Assembly (NCBI GenBank): GCA_965242985.1
Contig: OZ251520.1
Location: 1,683,227 to 1,747,226 of the forward strand
Origin: an uncultured candidatus Porisulfidus sp.
Lineage (GTDB): Bacteria > Pseudomonadota > Gammaproteobacteria > Poriferisulfidales > Poriferisulfidaceae
Direction of reading: 5' to 3'
Length of the DNA stretch: 64,000 bases
Shown here: positions 3,765 through 49,599 of the stretch, in pieces
Layout: each line of letters opens with the position of its first letter
How positions within the stretch are numbered: position 1 is the first letter of the stretch
The notes under the pieces: generated by a model
Database searches by the model: none
What the model saw: the letters and a program-made list of their open reading frames with translations, nothing else
Told to the model about the DNA's origin: nothing
Translations under genes and position numbers: made by a program

Positions 3765-5285
3765 CTAGAACAGCTGGCGCATGGACAGCTCGACGCGGCT
3801 GCGCCGGTACTCGAACAGCGACACGTTGGAGGTCCGCTCCTCGCGCACCAGCGACAGCGCCGGCACGAAGCCGAACAGGTGCAGGCGGTCGTTGGACAGC
3901 GTCAGGCGCGTGGTCGCCACCCGGTCGCGGCGCGGGTCCGGGCTCAGCGAGGCGTACCGCAGGCGGTCGTAGGCGGTGTGGTAGCGGTCGTGCGACAGCC
4001 GCAGGCGGGTGCCGGAGTAGCCGAACACCGGCGGCAGCTCGGCGACGCCGAAGACGCCGGCGCGGCGGTGGCGGCTGCGCACGCTGCGCGCCGCGGTGTC
4101 GGTGCGGCCCCAGCCGGCGCGCAGGCCGAACGCGACGGTCGGCGACCACTGGTAGGCGAGGTTCAGGTCGAGGTTGGCGCGGGCGCCGTTGTAGGCGTCG
4201 CTGTAGCGGTACTGGTGGCGGATCCGCTCCAGTTCGGCGTAGCCGGACAGGCGCTCGGTGAAGCGGTAGCGGGCCTCGAGCGCGGGGCCGTGGCCCTTGC
4301 TGGTGCGGCGGCCGCCGTACCAGCGCCGCTCGCCGCGCAGCACCAGGCCGACCTCGCCGCGCGGGAACAGCAGGCGCGGCCCCGCCTCCACGTACACCGT
4401 CATGTCGTCGAAGTCGTCGGAGCCGTGGTCGCGCCGGTAGACGCCGGCGCCGAGGCCGAGCCGGGTCAGGGTCCCCTCGGCCAGCTGCAGGTCCAGCGGG
4501 TGGCGGTACTCGCCCGCCGCGGACAGCACCACGCCGACGCCGGAGGTCTCGCGGCGCTCCTCCTCGATGGTGTCGGTGAACACCACGCCGGGGAACTGCG
4601 GCAGCGTGAAGGTGATGGTGCGGGCGCGGGTGCCGTTGCTGATGTTGGTGTCGGGCGCCAGCGCGAACGAGAACTCGCCGGAGACCCGCTTGCGCGCCTC
4701 GATCAGGGACAGGTGCAGCGCCACCGCCCGCGCCACCGCGGCCGGCAGTTCGCCCGCCAGGGCGCGGCGGAAGTGGTATGCGGCCGCGTCGCAGTCGTCG
4801 CCGAGCAGGTGCTCCCAGAGGTCCGGCGGCGGCGCCGCGCAGGCGCCGCGCGCGAACAGGGTCTGCGCCAGCTCCAGCCGCGCCCCGGCCAGGTCCGGGC
4901 TGCGCGCGAGGATGCGCCGGTAGCTCTCCTCGGCCTCGTCCAGCAGCGCCCGGCGGAGCTCCGGCGCGGCCGGCGCCTCCGGATGCTCCGGCGGCAACTG
5001 CGCCGCGGTGCGCGCCGCCAGGCCGAGGAAGAACAGGACGTCGGCGTCGTCGCCGTGCTGCAACGCCAGCGGCCGCAGCAGCGCCAGCGCGCTCGCCGGG
5101 CGGTCGGCCTGGATCAGCGCCTCGGCGCGGGCGACCGCTTCGGCCGGGTCGGCGGCGAAGCCGGGCGCGGCCGCGGCCAGCAGCAGCGCGGCGGCGAAGA
5201 GCGCGCCCGCGGGCGCGGCGGGGCTGCGCCCGGCGCGGGCGGGCGCCGCGGCGGATGCCGCGGAGGCTTCAGGGCCGGGAATCAT
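3765..5285 (-). CDS. Slam-like outer-membrane protein (N-terminal TPR-like region + C-terminal DUF560 beta-barrel ending RQLF), signal peptide present
   Basis: Signal peptide, TPR-like N-terminus, barrel-like C-terminus ending in aromatic residue; paralogous to ORF 36232..37686. Confidence 0.6.
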   Translation of the reverse strand: MIPGPEASAASAAAPARAGRSPAAPAGALFAAALLLAAAAPGFAADPAEAVARAEALIQADRPASALALLRPLALQHGDDADVLFFLGLAARTAAQLPPEHPEAPAAPELRRALLDEAEESYRRILARSPDLAGARLELAQTLFARGACAAPPPDLWEHLLGDDCDAAAYHFRRALAGELPAAVARAVALHLSLIEARKRVSGEFSFALAPDTNISNGTRARTITFTLPQFPGVVFTDTIEEERRETSGVGVVLSAAGEYRHPLDLQLAEGTLTRLGLGAGVYRRDHGSDDFDDMTVYVEAGPRLLFPRGEVGLVLRGERRWYGGRRTSKGHGPALEARYRFTERLSGYAELERIRHQYRYSDAYNGARANLDLNLAYQWSPTVAFGLRAGWGRTDTAARSVRSRHRRAGVFGVAELPPVFGYSGTRLRLSHDRYHTAYDRLRYASLSPDPRRDRVATTRLTLSNDRLHLFGFVPALSLVREERTSNVSLFEYRRSRVELSMRQLF

Positions 5286-5523: not shown

Positions 5524-6126
5524 TTGCCGCCCTTATCGCGCATCCTCGCCAAGGCGAACCGGGGCTGGTACAGCGTCAAGACCTACAGCAACGGCCGCGA
5601 CCTGCGCGTGACGGCCAGCGGCTGGGCAGGCGAGCGCACTTGGTGGGGCGGCACGCTCAAGCGCATGTACATCCGGCACCGGGGCGAAAGCCGCAAGCGC
5701 CGCGACGGTCCGCGCCTGGACGCGAACATGCAGACCGCCCACATCGCCACCCCGGCGCTGACGCTGGGCGCCCGCGGCGGCTGGCGCCGCTACCGGACCG
5801 ACGCGGCGGTCGAGCGCTACGACTCCTGGTGGGGCGGCCTCAGCGCCGACTACGAGCTGCCGCCGGTGCTCGGCGTCCAGGGCTTCGGCGCCAGCCTGTC
5901 CTACGACCGGCACCACCGCTATTCGGACCACGTGAAGATCACGGAGAGCCGCTCCAAGCGGCGCGACCGCCTGGGCATCGTCCGCCTGGCGCTGCACAAC
6001 CGCAACATCGAGTTCGGCGACTTCATGCCGGAGACCACCCTCGTCCACGAAGAGCGAAAATCAAACGTCGAGCTGTACCGCTACAAGCGCAGCCGCATCG
6101 AGCTGGGGCTACGCCGCCTGTTCTGA
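5524..6126 (+). pseudogene. C-terminal fragment (~200 aa) of a Slam/DUF560 paralog, N-terminus missing
   Basis: Aligns residue-by-residue with the last ~200 aa of the Slam at 36232..37686 (YDSWWGG...SYDRHHRYSD...GLRRLF); no N-terminal TPR/signal peptide. Confidence 0.6.
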
Positions 6127-7972: not shown

Positions 7973-10900
7973 AAGACTTTCTCGCCCCGCGCACCTACAC
8001 CAAGGTATCCGCCAAGGAACCGCAATCCTATGCGCCCGAAGACCTGCGCGGCCACGACGCCTACGTGCTGCTCGGCGGCCCGGGCTCGGGCAAAACGAAG
8101 ATGTTCGAGTATGAGGCCGAACAGGAGGGCTGCCGTTACGTAACTGCGCGCGACTTCATCGTGCTGGCTCTTTCCAAATGGCGCAATACCACGCTGTTCA
8201 TCGACGGGCTGGACGAGGCGCGTGCCGGGTCGAGGGACGGACGAAAACCAATCGATAAAATCCGCGCCAAACTGGAGAAGTTGAACCGGCCCCGATTCCG
8301 CCTTTCCTGCCGCACAGTAGACTGGTACGGCGAAAACGACAGCCGTGATCTGAAACCCGTGTCTCCGAACGGCAACGTAGAAGTTTTCCAGCTTGACCCG
8401 CTCTCGGATGACGCGGCCCACGAGTGCCTGAAGCACCATCCCAGCATCGAGAATGCCGAAGAATTCCAGCGACGCGCCTGCGAGCAGGGAATGCACTTTC
8501 TGCTGACCAATCCGCAGAGTCTGCAGATGCTGGCAGACTTGGTCGCAAACGGCACTTGGCCTGAAACGCGGATGCAACTATTCGACATCACCATCCGAAA
8601 ATTGTTGCAAGAACACAACCATGAACACATCCGCGTGGCCCCCCCTATCTCTCTGGGCGACTTGATGGACGCGGCTGGAAAACTATGCGCCGTGCAGTTG
8701 CTGAGCGGCATCGTCGGTTACGCCCGCACGGGCAACAGCCGCTCCGGCTGCCCCAGTCTAGATGAAGTTCCAGAAAACAATCCCGCTTTCCTCAACCGCG
8801 CTTTAGGCACCCGCCTATTCAAGGAAGAGAAAGGCGACTGCCTCATCCCCATACACGTGCAGATGGCGGAATTCTCTGCAGCGAAATATCTAGCAAAGAG
8901 AATTAAGGAAAATTTGCCCGCTAGACGGATACTCGCCTTGATGACAAGCGGAAACGGAGCTATCGCGCCGGAACTTCGCGGCCTGTCTGCTTGGCTCGCC
9001 ACGCACAGCAAAAGCAACCGGAGAGAGCTTATCGCACGCAATCCTATCGGAACAGTGCTGTATGGCGATGTCCGCAACTTCTCCTGCGATGAGAAATCCC
9101 AAATACTGGACTGCTTGAAACTAGTTGCTAAAGAACAACCCTGGCCGAAAATCCTAGACTCCATCGATCCCAAACTAGGAGACTTGGCCACAGATGATAT
9201 GGAGGAGAAATTCCGAGAGTACCTGGAGAATCTGGACCCGGAAGATATTGCTGAGAGGTCATTCGCCTTGATTCTTCTGGAGGCCATAAAAAACAGTCCG
9301 ATACATTGGCGGTTCGCTACTTCTATGCTGAAGATCGTCAAAAATAACCAGTGGCCTTCCGCTATAAGGGAGCGCACGCTTGATGAATACATACGTTGCG
9401 CCAAAAATAACGACGCAACAACTTCGGATCTTTTGCCTTTGCTTCAGGATATGGAAAAGGATCCAAACTTAGATCCCACGGACTCGCTCACGGCCCGGTT
9501 GCTTGAAGCACTCTACCCATACCCGGGCGCGCTGTCCGCCAAGGAGATCCTGCGATATCTGCGCCGACCTAGAATGCGGACTCTTATCGGAAGATATAAG
9601 GTCTTTTGGGGTGAACGCATCGACCAAGAAAATCCCAGCCAACTGGCTGAACTTCTAGACGCTTTCGTGGCACAGTACGACCGCCTCTGCAGTGAAGCGC
9701 TAGCTGATTCTCCGCCCAACTTTTTTCTAATCGAGATACCCCACAAGCTGCTGAGCCGCTTTCTTCTCACAGCGCCACCGAAAACGATCAAACTGAAGCG
9801 CCTATTCTCTTGGCTAAGAGCCGCCGCGTGGCCCGGAAAGCCTGGACACGAGCCGGGGGGCCAGGACGCAACACAAATTGTTGCATGGCTTGAACGACGC
9901 CCTGAAGACTACAAAGCTCTCATCAAAATGGGCTGGGAGCACTGCGTGGCGCAATCGGGATGCGCCAGCACCGAAGAATTCATGGAGTGCCTATTCCTGT
10001 TGGAACGGTGCTTTTGCCGCGCGATGTTGCCAAAAGACTTCGGCCGCTGGTGCCTTGACCAAGCCGTTGCTATCGACAACCAGATTATCCGGGAATATTT
10101 GGGCCGACAAATTGCCAATTTTGTACACTGGAAACAACACGATGAAGATCTTTCTGTGGAAATCGTGCAGGAATGCGCTTCTGGACACTTTGAACTTCTC
10201 AGGAGTTTTCAGGAACGGCTTTCCGAGCTTAAGGAAAACGATCGGTTATCCGAGGAAGAAGGCTGGCGAATTAAGGATATCCGCAAAAAAGATGCTACGC
10301 TAGCAAGAAAGCGGAGACTAAAGCGGTATGCGGAAATCAAGCAACATGAAACCGCTCTGAAAGAAAACTGTTGCTCGCCCGGAATACTCGACTTTCTGGC
10401 GCGAGCATATTACGGGGAATTTGGCAACATCCGCGGCCCAAACCCCAGATCTCGATTGCGCCTCCTCCTGAACGATGATGCGGAACTAGTAAACGCTGCG
10501 CTATGCGGGTTGCATGGAGCAATGGAGCGAAGTGACCTGCCTGTGGCAGATGAGATTATCAGGCTTACCGCGCAACACAGGATCCATCTGCTGGCAAAAC
10601 CATTTTTAATCAGTTTCGGCGAGGCTATGCGGCAACAGCCCGAAACCGTTGTGTCCGTGGAGGAAAAGCATCTTCGCTTAGCGCTCGCCATCCACTACAC
10701 AGCCCCCATTCGCTGGATAGACAACAAACCGCCAGAATGGCACGGAAAATTATTGGAAACTCATCCGCAGGTCGTCGCCGAAATGCTGGTGAAGTCCGTC
10801 AGATCGGAGCTGCGCAGCAAGCGTGATTGCCGCTCCATCCTCGACCACTGGTTTTCATCCTCAAATCACGCTGAAATCGCTCGAAGATCAGCTCTGCCTC

Positions 10901-21210: not shown

Positions 21211-22104
21211 CTAAGGTGAGAGGAGTCGGCGGCGCGGCTTTCCTCCGGAAGCGATGCCGGGCCCGAGTTCAGCGGCTTCCACGCCAAATCCGATCGCCCC
21301 CGCTAAACAAATTTCATGCCGCCAACTCCAGGCGCTGGCGCAATTTCCGGTTAAGAGGCTCAGGAGATTCCAGCGTTGAAACCATTCCCCCCCCCCCACA
21401 TCCGAAAGCCGCGCAAGATCCATCTTGGGGATTTCCGTCTGATCGTCAAACACTAGGAGAGATTCGAACTTGACTTGATGCCGATGAAAGTACGCCAGCA
21501 TGATCGTGGCCAGCCGCGCCTTATCCCGATTGGGGATCCCGTACAGAAACAGCGGAATGCCGTTTTTCCCCTCCAGCATGAAATCCACCAGATAGATTTC
21601 GGAATTCGGTGCCTCCGGCCGGTAATCCTGATGAATCCTACTTTCATCCACCAGTTCGAGCAGGGATTGCTTAAGATCTTCGTAGAATGCGGAACGGACA
21701 CGCACGCGGGAAAGCAGCGTCAGTTCGTAGACGCGCGTGAGCGCCTGCCCGAAAGAAAACAGGTTCTCCAACAGCCGCTCGGGAGCGGTCTCGAGACAGA
21801 ACGCCCCCTGCTCCCAAGTCAGGCCGGTTTCGCCCATGATGCGCTCCAGCTGCGCCCCTCTCGGCCCGTCCATGAAAGCATCGACATCATGCTCGTAACT
21901 GGCGTGCATGAGCGTGTGGCCTTGGTCGGAAAGCCGGAGCCCGCCGGAGGCGGTCTGGGTAAGGCGGACCGGAAAACGGTTTCCGTCGGGAAACGCGAAA
22001 TGGGTCCGCACCATGAGCGTGCCGTCCGGGCGCGCCTCGACTTTCACCTCCGCGCAGAGGCGCTCGCACAAGAGCTTTTCCAGCGCAGCCCGATTGAGCG
22101 CCAT
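21211..22104 (-). CDS. Hypothetical protein (DUF1828/DUF1829-like) whose 3' region contains a C11/G11 homopolymer; annotated C-terminus probably out of frame
   Basis: Plausible protein for ~230 aa then low-complexity tail after the GGGG codons. Confidence 0.3.
   Translation of the reverse strand: MALNRAALEKLLCERLCAEVKVEARPDGTLMVRTHFAFPDGNRFPVRLTQTASGGLRLSDQGHTLMHASYEHDVDAFMDGPRGAQLERIMGETGLTWEQGAFCLETAPERLLENLFSFGQALTRVYELTLLSRVRVRSAFYEDLKQSLLELVDESRIHQDYRPEAPNSEIYLVDFMLEGKNGIPLFLYGIPNRDKARLATIMLAYFHRHQVKFESLLVFDDQTEIPKMDLARLSDVGGGEWFQRWNLLSLLTGNCASAWSWRHEICLAGAIGFGVEAAELGPGIASGGKPRRRLLSP
21387..21397. repeat. 11-nt poly-C (poly-G on coding strand) tract inside ORF 21211..22104
   Basis: Read directly in sequence. 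Confidence 0.9.
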
Positions 22105-37781: not shown

Positions 37782-40457
37782 TCAGTTGCTGTCGGCCGGC
37801 GGGGCCTCCCGCACCGCGCCGAAAGCGCCGAACAGCATCGCGCCTTCCGCGACGCCGTTGTTGCCCGCGCCGCTGGTGCCGGTGCCGACCACCTCGAACG
37901 TGCCGCCGACTTCCTTGTGCGCGGCGTCGCCCGTGCCGTAGAACATGCCGTCGAGCACGGTGCCGGTCAGCTCCGGAGAGTCGCCGGCGGTCATGCCCAC
38001 GTGGCGGAAAGTGCCGGTGTCGGTCAGGGCCATTTCCTCGAACTTGAAGCCGCGCCCGGTGCCGTCGGTGGCGTCGCCTTCGACGCCCAGAGTAGTGACC
38101 GCGGCCCCGTTGTGCGGAGTCACGAAGCTGTCGAACGTCACGTCCACCTCTGTGTCGGCGAAATCGACCTCCACGGTCGCGTCGGCACGCCAGACCTCGG
38201 CCTCGCCGGCCGAGGCGGTGCTCATGGCGAGCGCCTCGCCGTTCCAGGTCGCGGTGCCGGTCCCGGTGGGCGCGGTCCCGCTCGGCACGCCCATCGACGC
38301 CGCGCCGTACAGCGCGTCCTGCTGCCACAGCGTGGGGTTGTCGTCGAAACGGAGCCCGGCCAAGGTGAAGGCTTTCACGTTGGCGGTCGTCGCGGAGATC
38401 TGCGTGACTGCGAACATGCTGTGTTCCATCCAGCCCAGATATCGGACGAAGTTGACTACCGCGCCGCCGCCCTGCTCATGATCGGGAGGGTTAGAGAAAT
38501 CGCCGCCGCTGGCCGCATGAGAATAATCCGTGACATCATTATTGAGCCCCTCCGCGGAGATGTAATAGTTCTCTCTCGTCAGCTGCACGACGCGGTCGGC
38601 CTCGTTGGCTTCGGTGGAGGGGTCGTCGACGGCGGGCGGCGAACTGATATCCATGAAGCCGACATCGTTGTCGGTGAAGCCCGGCGCGATGCCCAGGAAC
38701 GCGAACTCCCCGGCGGGCGCGGTGACGGGCGCGGCCGCGCCGCGCGTGCCCCGGTTCGCCAAGTCGCGGAACGCGGCCAGCGTCGGCTTGATGCTGCGCC
38801 AGAACACCCGTCCCATGCGCTCCGCCAGCGTGTCGCCCTCATCCTGGTATTCCGGGGCGATCGACGTGAACAGCTTGTTCAGCCGGTTGCCGGTGGTCGC
38901 CTGGTACGTGCCGAGGTTGGCGCTTTCGGCGCCGACCGCGACCGTGCTCCGCTCGGGATCCAGCGTGATGCAGTCGTTGTCGCAGCTCTCGAAGTTCTCC
39001 GTCAAGCGGCCCTGCAGGGTCAGCGTGGCGTTCGAGTCCGACGCGCCGACTCCCGTGATGTCGACTTCCGTTTCGTTGACGTTCAACGCGCTCGTTCTCA
39101 TCTTCAGGTACCGGATGCCCATCGTGCGCAGGCCCTCTTGCTCCAGCACGGCCTTGGGCCCGCTGCGCAGGCCGGCAAGCCGGTTGGCGTTGTAACTATG
39201 GCCCCAATGACGGACGGACGAGGAGCCGGCGGTCCCGGCCTCGTACTCTCCCGCAATGTCGGTGGTGACCGAAGCCCGATTCGTATTCGTGCCGCCGATG
39301 TTGTCCGCAATCAAGACTTTGCTTTGCGCGACGACATCCGGATCCGTGCCCTCGTCGTCGCCGTCGGGCATCGTCCGCGAGATGGACGTCCGCGTCAGCG
39401 TCGCGTCGGCCATATACGCCGCCGCGTCGTAGGTGTGCGTGACGGTCATCCCGCCCCCTGCGTCCACCTCCCGGGTGACGCTGGAAACGTCGCCGTCCGC
39501 GTCGTACTTGACCAGCAGATTGCCGGAGGAAACCATCAGCACCTGGGTCCGGACGCCGTCCGCGTTGTAGGAGGTGATCGTCGTAACCGCCTGCGTGCCC
39601 GCGCCCATCGAGTCTTCGCTGTACGAATACCTGGTCACCACCCGGGTCCGGTCGGCGCCCTCGGTGGTGATCACGGTCATCATGGTCACCCGGTGGTGCA
39701 TCGTGTCGTCGTCGGTGTCGTCCGCCGTGCCCTGATTGGCCGTGTGCACCTCGTAGACGTACTCCGTCTTGCTCATCTGGTTGCCGTCCGCGTCGAACTC
39801 GAACACCGTCATCGGATCCGTCGTGAGCATCGCGGCCACCGCATTGTCGCCGGAACCCTGCGGCGGACGCGTGTAGTAGTCGGTCCGCATGCTGGTCATG
39901 TCGGCCCGGGTCAGCACCATCCGCGTGACCATGGAGATGGCCAGCGCGCCGCCCGGGGCGGAGGCGGTGCCCGCCGTCCGCGTGATCGTGCCGGTGCGCA
40001 CCGTCGTGGTGCCGCCCGTGATCGCCACGGTCTCGGTGCCCGCGCCCGTCATGTCGTCCGCGTCGATCATCGCGCCTTCGCCGAACATCACGGTCGTGGT
40101 CGTGTCGCCCATCACCGTCACGATCCGCATCACGTCGGCGATGCTGTACGTGGGATCGGCGTCGGCGTCCGCGCCCGCGGTCTCGGTCACGGTGCCGTGG
40201 TACGTCACCATCCGGGTCACCTCGCCGTCCGTCGTCGTCCGCACGACCAGCGTGCCGGCCGCGCCGCCCATCGCGGTGCAATCGCCGCCCGCGCCGCACA
40301 TGTACATCGAGGTGGACATCACCACCGGCTCGGTCGGCTCCGGCGCCGGGGCCGGCGCCGCCGCGCCGCCGCCGCTGCCGCCGCCGCTGCAGGATGCCAG
40401 CAGGCCGGCCGCCAGCAACGCGGCCGCCGTCTTCAGTTCGGAACGGGAAATGCTCAT
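37782..40457 (-). CDS. Large surface lipoprotein (lipobox LLASC) with C-terminal TbpB/fHbp-like 8-strand barrel; candidate Slam-dependent surface lipoprotein
   Basis: Start MSISRSELKTAAALLAAGLLASC preceded by GAGAGGA; C-terminal GTFEVVG...AMLFGAFGA barrel-like motifs; immediately upstream of the Slam gene. Confidence 0.6.
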   Translation of the reverse strand: MSISRSELKTAAALLAAGLLASCSGGGSGGGAAAPAPAPEPTEPVVMSTSMYMCGAGGDCTAMGGAAGTLVVRTTTDGEVTRMVTYHGTVTETAGADADADPTYSIADVMRIVTVMGDTTTTVMFGEGAMIDADDMTGAGTETVAITGGTTTVRTGTITRTAGTASAPGGALAISMVTRMVLTRADMTSMRTDYYTRPPQGSGDNAVAAMLTTDPMTVFEFDADGNQMSKTEYVYEVHTANQGTADDTDDDTMHHRVTMMTVITTEGADRTRVVTRYSYSEDSMGAGTQAVTTITSYNADGVRTQVLMVSSGNLLVKYDADGDVSSVTREVDAGGGMTVTHTYDAAAYMADATLTRTSISRTMPDGDDEGTDPDVVAQSKVLIADNIGGTNTNRASVTTDIAGEYEAGTAGSSSVRHWGHSYNANRLAGLRSGPKAVLEQEGLRTMGIRYLKMRTSALNVNETEVDITGVGASDSNATLTLQGRLTENFESCDNDCITLDPERSTVAVGAESANLGTYQATTGNRLNKLFTSIAPEYQDEGDTLAERMGRVFWRSIKPTLAAFRDLANRGTRGAAAPVTAPAGEFAFLGIAPGFTDNDVGFMDISSPPAVDDPSTEANEADRVVQLTRENYYISAEGLNNDVTDYSHAASGGDFSNPPDHEQGGGAVVNFVRYLGWMEHSMFAVTQISATTANVKAFTLAGLRFDDNPTLWQQDALYGAASMGVPSGTAPTGTGTATWNGEALAMSTASAGEAEVWRADATVEVDFADTEVDVTFDSFVTPHNGAAVTTLGVEGDATDGTGRGFKFEEMALTDTGTFRHVGMTAGDSPELTGTVLDGMFYGTGDAAHKEVGGTFEVVGTGTSGAGNNGVAEGAMLFGAFGAVREAPPADSN

Positions 40458-40600
40458 GGGAATGATCCTCTCGGTTGGGGTTGGGAGTGGAAAAAAGTGA
40501 TTCGGTGGCGTCTTCCGGGGCCGTCGCCGCGGCCTCCCGGGCGGCCGCCCGCCGCCGGCGCGCAACCATGCCCCCGCCTCTCCGGGCGGGTCGGCGCGGG

Positions 40601-40629
40601 ATTATAGATGGTGCCGGTCATTTTGTAAA
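40601..40629 (-). promoter_or_regulatory. Near-consensus sigma70 promoter (TTTACA-17-TATAAT) ~145 nt upstream of lipoprotein start
   Basis: Reverse strand reads tctTTTACAaaatgaccggcaccatcTATAATc. Confidence 0.45.
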
Positions 40630-40743
40630 GACAGCCCGCACGGCCCCTCTCGCCCGCCCGGCGCGGGGGGAGGAAAGTCTCTCCCGCCCCGTCGCTGGGA
40701 AATGCGGCTGGCTGTGCGGCGGGAGAGTATACCACAGGGATTC

Positions 40744-40758
40744 GGGGGGGGGGGGGGG
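40744..40758. repeat. 15-nt poly-G (poly-C on lipoprotein strand) homopolymer upstream of lipoprotein promoter
   Basis: Read directly. Confidence 0.9.
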
Positions 40759-40860
40759 CGGAATCCGGCCCCGGATTCCGCGCCCGCCGCCGCCCGTGCC
40801 GGCGCCTGCTCCGCCGCCGCCGCAGGATGCCGGCAGGCCCGCCGCCGGCCCGCGCCGCGC

Positions 40861-41688
40861 CTACTCCGGCACCGCGAACGTCAGCCGCCGCGCCAGGCGC
40901 AGCAGCTCGCGCAGGCTCCCCACCGCCGCGTGCGGGCGGTGCGGGTGGCGCGCGGTGCCGGGGAACATCCGGTCCAGCCGCTCCCGCTCCCAGCCGGCGC
41001 CGTTGTAGAACACCGCCGTCGCCCCGGCGCGCCGGGCGGCGGCCACGTCGGCGGCGCTGTCGCCCACGCACCAGCAGTGCGGGTCCGCCGGCAGGCCGAG
41101 CGCCGCGGCCGCGGCCCGCACCGGCGCCGGGTCCGGCTTGCGCCGCGGCGCGTCGTCGCCGCACACCAGCGCGTCGAAGCAGCCGCGCAGGTCGGCCGCC
41201 GGCGAGGCCCGCGCCAGCGCCGCCAGCTCGCGCCGCACGAACGCCCGGTTGCGGTTGCTGAGCAGGCCCAGCTTCGCGCCCATCGCCCGCAGCGCCGCGA
41301 GCGCGCGCGGCGCGTCCGGCTCCAGCAGCTCGACCGGCCCCGGCGGCGCCGCCCGGTAGGCGGCGTCGAAGGCGCGGTGGGCGAGGTCCTTCGCTTCGCC
41401 GTCGTCGCCGAACAGCAGCTCGAACAGGTCGGTGCGCGAGATCTTGCGCGCCGCCCGCGCCCGCGGGTGCAGCCGGCCGTGCGCGCGCACGTGGCGCAGC
41501 AGCTTGGCCTCCTCCAGGGTGCGGCTGGCGGCGACCGGCGCCAGCCGCCCGCGCAGGCCGAGCTCCGCCAGCCGCGGCAGCACCTCGTCGACCGCGCGGT
41601 ACATCGCGTCGTGGGTGTCGACCAGCGTCGCGTGCCAGTCGAACAGGATCGCGCGCGGCGCGGCCTGCGGGTGCTCAGCCGCCGCCAT
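40861..41688 (-). CDS. HAD-superfamily hydrolase (phosphatase-like)
   Basis: ILFDWHATLVDT motif I and VGDSAADVAAARRAG motif IV. Confidence 0.55.
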   Translation of the reverse strand: MAAAEHPQAAPRAILFDWHATLVDTHDAMYRAVDEVLPRLAELGLRGRLAPVAASRTLEEAKLLRHVRAHGRLHPRARAARKISRTDLFELLFGDDGEAKDLAHRAFDAAYRAAPPGPVELLEPDAPRALAALRAMGAKLGLLSNRNRAFVRRELAALARASPAADLRGCFDALVCGDDAPRRKPDPAPVRAAAAALGLPADPHCWCVGDSAADVAAARRAGATAVFYNGAGWERERLDRMFPGTARHPHRPHAAVGSLRELLRLARRLTFAVPE

Positions 41689-45540: not shown

Positions 45541-45789
45541 CGGAGCTCGCGGAAAGCAACGTGTCCGCCCGCGGTACGCGGCAACACACTATAATATGTC
45601 AAAGTAATGCGGGACAACCTCCGAGAGGTTCCCGAAAACGCGCCGAGAGCGTGCAACTTTACGAAGAGGGATCGAGGACTTCACTAGGCTTCCGGTCAAT
45701 TGGCTTCTGCGGACCGGGTTGACCTCCCCGTTGAAACCTCATCAAACGCTGACTTGCCCGTACCCGTAAATCCTGCACGAAGTACTGCC

Positions 45790-48700
45790 ATGCCTAGAAA
45801 ACAACCACCGGTAGAGCACTTGACTCCACATTTCAACTTGCTCCAAGAAGAGTACTTGTTAATACAGGCATGGAAAAAGACCGTATCGTATATACGCCAA
45901 TATAATTGGTACGTGGATACCCTGCAACTCGATAGAGCTGCAATTAACCTGCGCTCGTTCATTTCGCGAATTCAGCGGCGCATACAAAAGCCAGAGTGGC
46001 AAAATCATAGGTTGCGGATCGTGCTGGCTCCCAAAAGCCAAACTTGGGAGACATCATCCAAATCTGCTCTTCCTTGGCATCCCGCAAATAAATCTGAACC
46101 AGACGAACCTACAATGCGCCTGCGGCCGCTCGCACACGTGGATATTGAAGAACAAGTTGTGGCAACCGCGCTGATGCTGTGTCTCGCTGATCGAGTCGAA
46201 ACAAAGCAAGGAGATCCGCGAGACGAAATCCAGGACGAGATCTCGAGGAAAAAAGTACTTTCATATGGCAACCGCCTGTTTTGTGACCGCAGCGACAACG
46301 AATTGCACCATCGATGGGGGACAACCAAATTATATCGAGCCTACTACCAAGACTATAGGAAGTTTCTTGCTCGTCCAGATGCTGTTGTGAAACCTCATGG
46401 GAAACAAAAGAATTTCCGGAATCGAAATATCTTCGTCGTTCATTCTGACCTTAAAGAGTTTTACGATAGGGTGCGACCTCGCCATCTTGCTGATGCCCTG
46501 CTACACCTTAAAGAAAATGCCGATGAGCAGCCATTCTTTGACTTTGCGAAGCGCGTTCTGAACTGGACTTGGAACTCCCGCGACAAAAAACAAAGCACTT
46601 TCTATGCCACTCAGGCGGGAATTGAAGACTTCGACCATGTGGCCCTCCCGCAAGGCCTAGTCTCCGCCGGCTTTTTTGCAAACATCATGCTTCTTGAGTT
46701 CGACAAAAAACTGCAAGAAACAATCGGGAAAAATATCACAAAAGATAGCAGCCTTCGTTTAGAAGATGCTTGCAGGTACGTTGACGACCTGCGAATAACC
46801 ATGACCAGTCCCCGCACAGATAATTCTGTAGATGTGGCGGATGTAAAAGACAAAACCTTGGCATGGCTACAACAACTGTTGATAGACACCGCGCCCGAAC
46901 TGGAGATCTCTATAGATAAGACTGAGATCCGCCAAGTAGATCAAGCCGATAATCCTTTGATCAATCAAAGCGCCAAGATGAATCGCATTCAAAAGGCGGT
47001 ATCTGGTGGATTTGATGCGGTCGGCGGAACCGAAATACTGGACTTGATCCAAGGCTTGATGCGGTCCCAAGAAGCATTGCATCGAAAAGAATGCGAAACC
47101 ATTTGGCCATTTTCTCCACTGACCGATGTCCAGAAAGGAACCGTCGCTAGATTCACAGCGGGCCGCTACCGGACCACATACAGATCCGTCAGGCCCCTGC
47201 TTGACGATACACAGCAGTCTAAGGAAATCAATGATGCCGACTTTCCTACAAAATCAGGTGCTGACTATCTTGGTCTCATCACACAACGCGAGCTTGATGA
47301 AGACATGCGTGTTTTTGCGCTTGGCCTTATTGAGCGATGGGTGGCCGATCCATCGAACGTAAGGTTGCTACGCATTGGGCTGGATCTCCGACCTGATGCC
47401 AAAATACTGCAGAAAATACTGGACATGATTCGCCCGCTGATCCATAAGCGAGGTCCGCAACGTTCCGTTGCATTGTATTGCCTAGCGGAACTGTTTCAGG
47501 CTGGAGCCACAGAAACTGGATGGGTAGAAGATAATGAATCTCTACCTGATGACGTCAAAGTCAAGCAATATCGGAAAATTCTGCGGGAGGAAGCAACTAG
47601 GCTAGTAGAACCAAAGACTGCTCTTATTCCTTGGTATCTCCGGCAACAAGCACTGCTATACCTCGCCGTCTGTTCTCCTGAAGAAGCGGTGCCAATCCCC
47701 CGGACAACTCAGAATGAAACCAAGCACTACTACAGAATGATCGAGTTTTTGCAGTCCGGAAATATTAATCAACCCATATCGGTGTCGGAGTTTGCGAACT
47801 TAGCGGTACTGGCCCATCGTTCATTCCCAAAAAGAAGAACAGTTACGGCCAAAGCAATTCGCCAACAACTAACACCCGCTCGAGCCGAGGCTATCGCTGC
47901 GCGAGATCTTTCGTTCGCTTACGACCTTGTCACACAGGAAACCCGCCCTTTTAATGTGACGCATCTGTCTACACACATCAAAGAAGATCTCTGTCTTGAA
48001 GAAAGTACAATTCCCGAGAATGGAATGCAGAGTCTTGCAAGTATCGTGTTGGAGAATAAACATGACCTAAACGTCTTTCAGAACGAACTGGCGGTGTTGC
48101 GCTTCGCGGAAAAATTCCTTGAGCAACTGTCGCAAATGTCTCCTCGACCTCTAGCTATCACCCCTAGGAACGTGTGGGTTGAAGTTAAGGCCCCGCACGC
48201 GCAAATTGCCAAAATCAGGCGAGTGAAAATCTTTCCCGACGTAACACCCCACTCCAACTCTCTCTATAGCCCTCCCAACTGGTGTGCTGAAAATGATCGT
48301 TGGCGTTTCAATCTTGGATTCCTAATCCGCTTTATACTCACGGGGCAACCGGATTTTACTCGTCGCGTATTTCCATCAGTTCACTGGAAAGAAGATACCT
48401 CCACATACCGGAAAGCGGAAAGCCACTGGTATCAGCGACTTCACGGATTATACAACGGTCAACAAGCATTCGGCGGAGACTGGGTCCCCGTGACGGACTG
48501 GGTGGAACAGTTTGTGCTGGCCCTCCTGCGTTGGCCTGGCTGTTACTTGCCCAAGACTTTTGAATTTGCCAGCAATGGGCTTGAGCCAACTAGGATGGCA
48601 ATTAAAACAAGAATCGGAGTGCTTAACAATGCTATGGGCCATGTCTCTGGAACACAACTACTCCCAGTTAACGCGCAACCTAAGCGGCTTAGCACAAAAA

Positions 48701-49599
48701 ACACCCTGCGAATCTGCGTTGTGCAGACCGCCATCCCAAAAGTCCGAGATTTCGAGAAGTGCGGTCTCTCACTATCCACGCCTTTGATCCGCAAAAAGCA
48801 TCGCAGACATCTTTCCGCTGCCCTCACCGCTGTCAAAAGCATTATGCATCTCCGAAACACTCACATGGAATGTGGCGGAGAATTGGATTGGCTGATTTTG
48901 CCCGAACTTGCGGTTCATCCGAAAGATGTAACGACTCACCTGATGCCATTTGCACGTGCCTATAAAGCGTTAATACTCGCAGGATTGACATATGAAAAAC
49001 TGCCACGCGGCCCATACCAAAACTCCGCGATATGGATTCTCCCCGAATGGTCCGAATCTTCCGAACTGCGGATTCGAACACGCAGGCAGGGGAAACAGCA
49101 CCTTTCTCCGGTCGAGAAGAAATTTAATGACGGCCGGGAACGTGTCCAAGGTTTTCGGCCCTGCCAATGGCTAGTGCGTTACCCTTGGTCAGCAGAGGAA
49201 AACAGCCAGCCTCTGATGCTGACCGGTTCCATTTGTTACGACGCAACCGATTTGGAAATCATCACCGCCCTCCGGAATCAATCGGATGTCTTGGCTATAC
49301 CATCCCTGAATCCGGATGTGCGAACGTTTGACCAGATGGCTCAAGCCCTGCATTACCACATGTTCCAGCTCGTTATCGTAGCCAATAACGGCCAGTACGG
49401 AGGAAGCAACGCATATTGGCCCGCCAAGGGAATCAAGAAGCAAATTTTTCATGTGCACGGGCAGCCGCAAGCCTCCATCACTTTTTTTGAAATCGACAAT
49501 ATCGAAGATTTTCAAAAGCGAACTCTCCCAAGCGATGAGCGCCAGAAATATCCTCTAGCAGGATCAAGATGGAAATATCCTCCAGCAGGCTTAGGCTAG
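45790..49599 (+). CDS. Reverse transcriptase fused to C-terminal nitrilase/CN-hydrolase domain (DRT type 1 / UG1-like defense RT)
   Basis: RT motifs (FVVHSDLKEFYDRV; ALPQGLVSAGFFANIML; YVDD) and nitrilase-like LRICVVQT...ILPE...GSICYD; ~1270 aa. Confidence 0.65.
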   Translation: MPRKQPPVEHLTPHFNLLQEEYLLIQAWKKTVSYIRQYNWYVDTLQLDRAAINLRSFISRIQRRIQKPEWQNHRLRIVLAPKSQTWETSSKSALPWHPANKSEPDEPTMRLRPLAHVDIEEQVVATALMLCLADRVETKQGDPRDEIQDEISRKKVLSYGNRLFCDRSDNELHHRWGTTKLYRAYYQDYRKFLARPDAVVKPHGKQKNFRNRNIFVVHSDLKEFYDRVRPRHLADALLHLKENADEQPFFDFAKRVLNWTWNSRDKKQSTFYATQAGIEDFDHVALPQGLVSAGFFANIMLLEFDKKLQETIGKNITKDSSLRLEDACRYVDDLRITMTSPRTDNSVDVADVKDKTLAWLQQLLIDTAPELEISIDKTEIRQVDQADNPLINQSAKMNRIQKAVSGGFDAVGGTEILDLIQGLMRSQEALHRKECETIWPFSPLTDVQKGTVARFTAGRYRTTYRSVRPLLDDTQQSKEINDADFPTKSGADYLGLITQRELDEDMRVFALGLIERWVADPSNVRLLRIGLDLRPDAKILQKILDMIRPLIHKRGPQRSVALYCLAELFQAGATETGWVEDNESLPDDVKVKQYRKILREEATRLVEPKTALIPWYLRQQALLYLAVCSPEEAVPIPRTTQNETKHYYRMIEFLQSGNINQPISVSEFANLAVLAHRSFPKRRTVTAKAIRQQLTPARAEAIAARDLSFAYDLVTQETRPFNVTHLSTHIKEDLCLEESTIPENGMQSLASIVLENKHDLNVFQNELAVLRFAEKFLEQLSQMSPRPLAITPRNVWVEVKAPHAQIAKIRRVKIFPDVTPHSNSLYSPPNWCAENDRWRFNLGFLIRFILTGQPDFTRRVFPSVHWKEDTSTYRKAESHWYQRLHGLYNGQQAFGGDWVPVTDWVEQFVLALLRWPGCYLPKTFEFASNGLEPTRMAIKTRIGVLNNAMGHVSGTQLLPVNAQPKRLSTKNTLRICVVQTAIPKVRDFEKCGLSLSTPLIRKKHRRHLSAALTAVKSIMHLRNTHMECGGELDWLILPELAVHPKDVTTHLMPFARAYKALILAGLTYEKLPRGPYQNSAIWILPEWSESSELRIRTRRQGKQHLSPVEKKFNDGRERVQGFRPCQWLVRYPWSAEENSQPLMLTGSICYDATDLEIITALRNQSDVLAIPSLNPDVRTFDQMAQALHYHMFQLVIVANNGQYGGSNAYWPAKGIKKQIFHVHGQPQASITFFEIDNIEDFQKRTLPSDERQKYPLAGSRWKYPPAGLG

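Follow-up and report, generated by a model that had tools for sequence, protein, structure and literature searches.

In a 64-kb stretch of DNA from an uncultured and very GC-rich gammaproteobacterium (the window, throughout this text), a run of 15 C residues on the coding strand lies within the 5' control region shared by a putative surface lipoprotein gene and the Slam gene that follows it. The run is far longer than chance would produce, it differs in length in the one other genome in which it was found, and the sequence on both sides of it is the same in the two genomes. It is part of a compact module, composed of a palindrome, the tract, and an extended -10-like element, which is located upstream of a separate, nearly consensus promoter, P1. 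Given this arrangement, the tract appears to be a credible candidate for a contingency locus, whose partner is likely to be the extended -10/palindrome module rather than P1, and it could plausibly act as a switch of a familiar type, either on/off or graded. The explanation that we favor, although only tentatively, is that the module constitutes a second, upstream promoter, P2, whose activity would be sensitive to the length of the tract and would come on top of that of P1. The features of the locus are collected in Table 1.

Table 1. Features of the lipoprotein-Slam locus and of its upstream region, with positions in the window
Feature	Position	Strand	Remarks
Slam gene, 485 aa	36232..37689	minus	PF04575 (DUF560), E = 4e-19
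Lipoprotein gene, 891 aa	37782..40457	minus	signal peptide, lipobox LLASC
5' leader downstream of P1	40458..40600	minus	Shine-Dalgarno GAGAGGA at 40472-40466
Promoter P1	40601..40629	minus	TTTACA 40629-40624, 17-nt spacer, TATAAT 40606-40601
10-bp perfect inverted repeat, CTCTCCCGCC / GGCGGGAGAG	40679..40727	minus	29-nt loop; begins at the last two bases of TATACT
Extended -10-like TGGTATACT (putative P2)	40726..40734	minus	TGn plus 5/6 matches to TATAAT
GAATCC, third copy of the palindrome half-site	40738..40743	minus	directly after the tract; kept in L001
Homopolymer tract	40744..40758	G15 on plus, C15 on minus	minus is the lipoprotein-coding strand; read from the sequence
8-6-8 palindrome, CGGAATCC-GGGGCC-GGATTCCG	40759..40780	read on minus	adjoins the tract
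Signal-peptide/lipobox remnant, non-coding	40784..40858	minus	73 nt, 84% identity to lipoprotein codons 14-37
HAD-family hydrolase gene	40861..41688	minus	upstream gene; stop codon 80 nt before the palindrome
FkbO/Hyg5-like chorismatase gene	42691-41675	minus	upstream of the HAD gene

The G15 tract reported in an earlier note on this DNA is indeed present on the forward strand, and it is the only G run longer than six residues in the 64 kb. Runs of four, five, and six G residues occur 110, 30, and 6 times, respectively, followed by none of 7 to 14 and then by the single run of 15. Because the counts fall off in this way, a chance origin of the tract can be excluded; if the decay is extrapolated, the expectation for a run of this length would be roughly 1e-5. 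Furthermore, the tract lies well within the range of lengths, about 8 residues or more, at which G/C homopolymers are hypermutable. A 236-aa open reading frame that crosses the tract and overlaps the lipoprotein start through an ATGA was considered and set aside: its counterpart in the second genome (contig L001) stops earlier, and there is no conservation at the level of the protein.

The lipobox cysteine of the lipoprotein is present in its signal peptide (MSISRSELKTAAALLAAGLLAS-C), and 92 nt separate the lipoprotein stop codon from the start of the Slam gene; a homologue of the Slam protein, P0003, is 99% identical. The pairing of the lipoprotein with Slam, as proposed in the earlier note, is real: the lipobox and the PF04575 match are both present, and the Slam gene lies directly downstream. 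The reading frame called there for the lipoprotein was a different one, and the real ORF ends at 37782. The lipoprotein is a candidate Slam substrate, an identity that rests on the lipobox, on the adjacency of the Slam gene, and on a weak match of its last 177 aa to TbpB_B_D (PF01298), which covers the whole profile with E = 0.011 and 16.7 bits against a cut-off of 26. Searches of the lipoprotein against PDB sequences, Pfam-type families, and NCBIfam gave no match above threshold, and AlphaFold, run on an alignment of three sequences, returned a model too poor for use, with a pLDDT of 28. A tblastn search with the lipoprotein detected distant similarity to two stretches of L005, a contig of a related lineage, one of which lies in a gene that has a weak TbpB_B_D match. 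With its lipobox, its adjoining Slam gene, and a dN/dS of 1.08 overall between the two genomes, the product that would be regulated looks like a variable surface protein.

The intergenic region between the HAD gene and the lipoprotein gene is 403 nt long. At its upstream end lies the signal-peptide remnant, which together with the copy in the gene forms direct repeats around a control region of roughly 400 bp. The remnant is also present in L001 (9624-9681), where 54 of 58 positions are identical to the gene of that genome. A strain-specific base is common to the remnant and the gene copy, both reading GGCATCC in the window and GGCGTCC in L001, which suggests gene conversion or repeated recombination at this site. 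Except for this 73-nt remnant, no silent or partial copies of the lipoprotein gene were found in the 64-kb window.

Read along the minus strand, the elements follow one another in the order signal-peptide remnant, palindrome (40780-40759), C15, GAATCC, CTG, TGGTATACT, the 10-bp inverted repeat and, about 90 nt beyond this repeat, P1. The palindrome is a candidate binding site for a regulator and/or a candidate RNA hairpin. It occurs once in the window and, among the loci fetched, elsewhere only at the homologous site of L001, and it was thus rejected as a repeated element. With the third half-site copy, GGATTC and GAATCC flank the tract on its two sides. The second TATACT that the earlier note had placed beside the tract is present on the coding strand (40731-40726), 12 nt downstream of the tract, and the T and G at 40734-40733 complete it to TGGTATACT. 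TGGTATACT is the sole occurrence of TGNTANNNT in a 6.7-kb GC-rich block, counting both strands, and when the intergenic region was dinucleotide-shuffled 5000 times, the motif arose in about 1% of the shuffles. If a 17-bp spacer is counted from TATACT, the -35 element would be CCCCCC (40754-40749), inside the tract. Relative to TGGTATACT, the tract extends from -39 to -25, and the center of the palindrome falls at about -50.5 with C15 and -47.5 with C12. Both arms of the 10-bp inverted repeat are unchanged in L001.

P1 is likewise real. The TTTACA-17-TATAAT sequence, already noticed downstream of the tract, matches the consensus at 11 of the 12 hexamer positions; it is the top promoter-like site within 20 kb, and a comparable site arose in none of 50 shuffles of the region. 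In L001, both hexamers are unchanged, and differences occur at 3 of the 17 spacer positions and at 6 of the 20 bases that follow, a pattern of constant hexamers in variable surroundings that fits selection on the hexamers. However, the idea that the tract acts on P1 is not supported. [quoted passage not shown] A search of Rfam found no family for the 5' leader, and a known RNA element was rejected, the sole Rfam match being a chance CRISPR-repeat (E = 0.86). A Fur box over P1 was set aside as well: 11-12 of 19 positions match by eye, and the two alleles do not share the dyad. P1 is flanked on both sides by an imperfect inverted repeat of 18 nt with 83% complementarity (40573-40590 and 40653-40670).

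Among 5.8 billion proteins, only two homologues of the lipoprotein were found, encoded on contigs L001 and L002. L001, from ENA sample ERZ26050812, encodes a lipoprotein that is 95% identical to that of the window and is collinear with the window from the palindrome through the Slam gene, with a DNA identity of 96%. Its tract has 12 C residues (9702-9713) against 15 in the window, a comparison of two assemblies in which long-read homopolymer error is possible. None of the 22 positions of the palindrome and none of the 29 following nucleotides differ between the two, and the divergence is about 7% in the rest of the intergenic region and about 6-7% in the first 900 nt of the lipoprotein gene. 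The probability of finding no change in 51 nt at 7% divergence is about 0.025. The two lengths, 15 and 12, between identical flanks in two genomes are in line with the proposal of the earlier note that the tract is a candidate for phase variation; the action on P1 that it implied is not supported. Both assemblies probably derive from long reads, and the coverage of L001 is about 8x judging by the contig name; part of the difference between 15 and 12 could consequently reflect miscalling of the homopolymer.

These two are the alleles of the tract known across all of the collections searched, and exact-pattern scans of genome and metagenome contigs, run with the conserved flanks of 23 nt and 28 nt, added no others. 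A protein taken up as a possible third lipoprotein allele, P0039, is 100% identical to the window protein and thus comes from the window's own genome. Exact-protein look-ups with P0039, the lipoprotein, and the HAD protein gave no match. In the lipoprotein gene (window 37782-40457, L001 10001-12673), from which the overall dN/dS given above was obtained, codons 100-299 hold 38.5 nonsynonymous versus 9.5 synonymous changes, and codons 300-890 are almost identical; for the Slam gene, the dN/dS against L001 is 0.24. This clustering of substitutions in the lipoprotein fits a hypervariable or mosaic N-terminal domain. The lipoprotein of L002 is 72% identical to that of the window, and its contig yields no upstream region because it starts within the gene. 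In positions 1-320 of L002, the lipoprotein frame changes near codon 335, and the contig ends inside the variable N-terminal region; this could reflect a pseudogene, an error at low coverage (about 5x, judging by the name of the contig), or strain heterogeneity that broke the assembly.

The two genomes also differ in the gene upstream. The HAD gene is wholly missing from L001, in which the upstream gene is the FkbO-like one, with its stop codon 79 nt before the hairpin. The HAD segment of the window (about 40876-41685; L001 9590-9640) is bounded by a short direct repeat, GCGGCGGCTGA, with one copy at the FkbO-like stop and one near the HAD stop, and this suggests that the difference arose by deletion or insertion between the short repeats.

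Long G/C tracts are not confined to this locus. In a related lineage (L004-L006, with a Slam gene of about 78% DNA identity), three co-occurring contigs carry a tract at one site, which is G16 in L004 and in L005 (13782-13797) and G14 in L006 (13782-13795), with 1 SNP in 210 nt of flanking sequence. This tract is preceded by an inverted repeat, GGAAAAG..CTTTTCC, and is followed by four TTATTTAATT-type repeats and a tRNA-Glu gene. The module lies after the stop codon of the upstream gene, and no protein-coding gene is found downstream on its strand; an ABC-transporter gene on the opposite strand converges on the gap that holds it, and the tRNA-Glu gene is about 320 nt further. A second site in L005 (6503-6514) has C12 on the plus strand, or G12 on the strand of the gene, 122 nt upstream of the start of an autotransporter gene, and adjoins the inverted repeat CGTGGAA..TTCCACG. 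At both of these related-lineage loci, the tract is next to an inverted repeat and 55-100 nt after a stop codon. The second long tract of the window itself, C11 on the plus strand (21387-21397), is a G11 near the 3' end of a DUF1828 gene (ORF 21211-22104, minus strand). With G11, the reading frame spans 297 aa and ends in an implausible tail, and G9 or G12 would give a natural-looking protein of 262-263 aa; the tract may therefore be a frameshift-type switch or mark a pseudogene. The gene sits in a defence-type island. The DUF1828 genes of the window and of L001 were compared for variation in the tract, but their DNA sequences do not align. Overall, slippage at long G/C runs in these genomes is likely, as judged from assemblies rather than from reads.

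The reading of the module as a promoter, P2, was suggested because the tract occupies the position that the C-stretch has in the Bordetella fim promoters. In this model, the slippage-prone C15 is part of the 5' control region of the operon formed by the lipoprotein and Slam genes but lies outside P1, and P2 would line up the 8-6-8 palindrome, then the C tract and, 12 nt beyond it, the extended -10 TATACT of TGGTATACT. With simply CCCCCC as its -35 element, P2 would depend on the extended -10 and probably also on a dimeric regulator bound at the palindrome. The gain or loss of a C would then change both the distance of the palindrome from the -10 and its rotational position on the helix. As a result, the share of lipoprotein and Slam transcription that comes from P2 would be set up or down heritably and reversibly, adding to that from P1. 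What was observed is the anatomy of the sequence, its improbability by chance, its conservation, and the difference in tract length between two genomes; slippage in vivo, an active P2, the existence of a regulator, and an effect on expression are inferred. The findings in favor of P2 include, besides the extreme tract, its two lengths between unchanged flanks, the fim-like CCCCCC at -35, the variable tracts of the related lineage, and the surface-protein character of the product, that TGGTATACT is on the coding strand and is the unique extended -10 in 6.7 kb and that the palindrome and tract accompany the lipoprotein cassette despite the different upstream gene (HAD in one genome, FkbO-like in the other). 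Several points argue against it. The alleles known number only two in the collections searched, and homopolymer miscalling could account for part of their difference in length. The nearly consensus P1 downstream could make P2 redundant unless P1 is repressed. In neither genome is the center of the palindrome at a classical activator position, and the leader of a P2 transcript would be 260 nt. Furthermore, the palindrome is a stable RNA hairpin in a terminator-like position past the upstream stop, and one of the hairpin-plus-tract modules of the related lineage lies where no protein-coding promoter would be expected beside it.

Homopolymer tracts within promoters are known from other bacteria. 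In Neisseria meningitidis opc, porA, and fetA, poly-C or poly-G in or beside the -35 element and spacer sets the transcription of outer-membrane proteins through slipped-strand changes. In those genes, however, the tract lies in the only promoter, whereas here there is a second, strong promoter that is independent of the tract. The hpuA and hmbR genes of pathogenic Neisseria have in-frame poly-G tracts that act by frameshift, and HpuA is a Slam-dependent lipoprotein. The present locus is like hpuA in that a Slam-type surface lipoprotein is associated with a G/C homopolymer, with control as a candidate role here, but the tract is non-coding rather than coding, with no conserved ORF across it. 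The closest parallel to the proposed P2 is found in Bordetella, where Pfim2, Pfim3, and PfimX are activator-dependent, phase-variable promoters with CCCCCC at -35 and an activator dyad that overlaps this element or lies upstream (PMC7250471). For Pfim3, tracts of 11-16 C residues coexist in a single culture, and the deletion of one C abolished Fim3 production (PMC10172299). [quoted passage not shown] They differ in the dyad, which in Bordetella is a pair of BvgA heptads (TTTCCTA) and here, compared by inspection, is CGGAATCC-N6-GGATTCCG. As the dyad is not a BvgA site, the likeness is one of mechanism rather than of family. Also different from fim are the additional near-consensus promoter downstream, the greater length of sequence between tract and start codon, and the host, an uncultured gammaproteobacterium in which the promoter is predicted from sequence alone.

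Other explanations of the module must be weighed against P2. It is conceivable, although rather unlikely, that the palindrome is an insulator or terminator-like hairpin that ends the upstream operon and that the C tract is its neutral, slippery tail, drifting in length without any regulatory effect. Extended by pairing between (GGC)n and the C tract, the palindrome would stop or stabilize the upstream transcript and shield the cassette from read-through, and the C-rich tail could possibly aid the loading of Rho. In agreement with this, a hairpin with 10 perfect pairs reaching into the tract is predicted in both genomes, where it follows the stop codon of the HAD gene by 80 nt (window) or that of the FkbO-like gene by 79 nt (L001), and all three independent tract loci, counting those of the related lineage, lie 55-100 nt past a stop codon and next to an inverted repeat, one of them with no downstream protein-coding gene on its strand. 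Thus, a G+C-rich hairpin with a 10-bp perfect stem about 80 nt after a stop codon and a homopolymer next to it are features that the locus has in common with Rho-independent terminators. In such terminators, however, the homopolymer is U, and here it is C15; a terminator scan of 40300-41000 found 0 sites. Intrinsic termination needs the opposite of an rC:dG hybrid. In addition, the folding energy of the whole region compared with shuffled sequences is not better in the window (z = +0.9) and only marginally so in L001 (z = -1.8), and a hairpin of this type would leave unexplained both the unique TGGTATACT beside the tract and the 0 substitutions in 51 nt. The model implied by the earlier note, that the tract modulates P1 from a distance through the helical phase of a bound factor or through DNA structure, is quite unlikely. 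Distal repeat tracts can work through bound regulators, as do the TAAA repeats of nadA in the meningococcus, and no promoter-like site within 20 kb is better than P1, whose hexamers are conserved amid variable surroundings. Nevertheless, at 114 nt from the -35 the tract leaves the spacing of the core promoter untouched, the palindrome has no second copy near P1 that would allow looping, and the published screen disfavors distal tracts (PMC1891110).

A role in recombination has also been considered. At gonococcal pilE, a G-rich run that forms a G4 structure lies upstream of the gene for a variable surface protein, with the promoter and -10 of the gar sRNA adjacent to it (PMC3547852), and the present locus is similar in having a G-rich run upstream of a gene for a variable surface protein with a -10 directly beside it. 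It is highly improbable, though, that G15 acts in the manner of pilE as a hot spot at which a three-tetrad G-quadruplex or a stalled replication fork promotes gene conversion or allele exchange in the 5' part of the lipoprotein gene. The signal-peptide remnant beside the module, with the strain-specific base that it shares with the gene copy, would be consistent with this, as would the concentration of divergence in the control region and the N-terminal third of the gene, the -10-like element adjoining the G run as at pilE (PMC3547852), and the break of the L002 contig within the variable region. On the other hand, pilE needs silent donor copies, and the 64-kb window holds none for the lipoprotein. 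The pilE motif consists of four G3 blocks rather than a homopolymer and is transcribed from its promoter in the orientation opposite to that of pilE; here, the good -10 points away from the tract. The plus strand has TATACC, which lacks the essential final T, so that no transcription across the tract on a C-rich template is predicted. Furthermore, C12 of L001 would support only a two-tetrad G4. A broader version of the idea is very unlikely as well. It holds that an inverted repeat with a long G/C homopolymer is a recurrent, lineage-wide module that marks the exchange of surface cassettes and islands, in which G15 would serve less as a promoter spacer than as an initiator of recombination (through a G4 or a stalled fork) that diversifies the 5' third of the lipoprotein gene, with the signal-peptide remnant as a footprint. 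It is based on the combination of an inverted repeat and a G/C run at this locus, upstream of the autotransporter gene, and beside the island border at the tRNA-Glu gene. Finally, it is extremely improbable that the tract, or its difference in length, is an artefact of assembly or sequencing rather than biology. Homopolymers of 12-15 residues are error-prone in long-read consensus sequences, and L001 has the low coverage noted above. However, two assemblies made independently both have the tract at this place, between homologous flanks that are continuous, and comparable tracts are present in three more contigs of the related lineage; its existence is consequently secure, and only its exact length is uncertain. 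At the tract site, the base-level assembly of this lineage is not to be trusted.

Most known examples of phase-variable surface proteins come from host-restricted pathogens, for instance Neisseria, Haemophilus, Bordetella, and Campylobacter. Should a tract-length-sensitive P2 be confirmed, an uncultured gammaproteobacterium of very high GC content would control a Slam-dependent lipoprotein through a homopolymer switch, so that contingency loci and Slam-type surface display would reach a new ecological setting, and a fim-like promoter with a CCCCCC -35 would exist outside Bordetella. This uncultured lineage has been little sampled. It was placed indirectly, through RecA of a related contig, whose identity to the best 80 GTDB-representative loci listed does not exceed 76%; among those listed, Thiotrichales-like gammaproteobacterial MAGs come closest, and a closer relative may lie outside the list.

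The window as a whole is a mosaic in GC content. Blocks of 70-83% GC hold metabolic genes and the Slam cassettes, and blocks of 46-58% hold defence and toxin-antitoxin genes, with UvrD-PDDEXK, DndE-HerA, AAA_21, SocA/Panacea, and SLOG domains among the contents of the latter. The lower-GC blocks also encode a protein of 1299 aa with a reverse-transcriptase domain (45700-49599). Besides the Slam gene of the lipoprotein operon, the window has a second full Slam gene (3765-5285, minus strand) and a 200-aa C-terminal Slam fragment (5524-6126, plus strand). In L001, a duplicate of roughly 200 bp of the Slam 3' end (16075-16278) lies beyond inserted DUF6978/DUF1828 genes; the 3' ends of Slam genes may serve as insertion sites for small islands.
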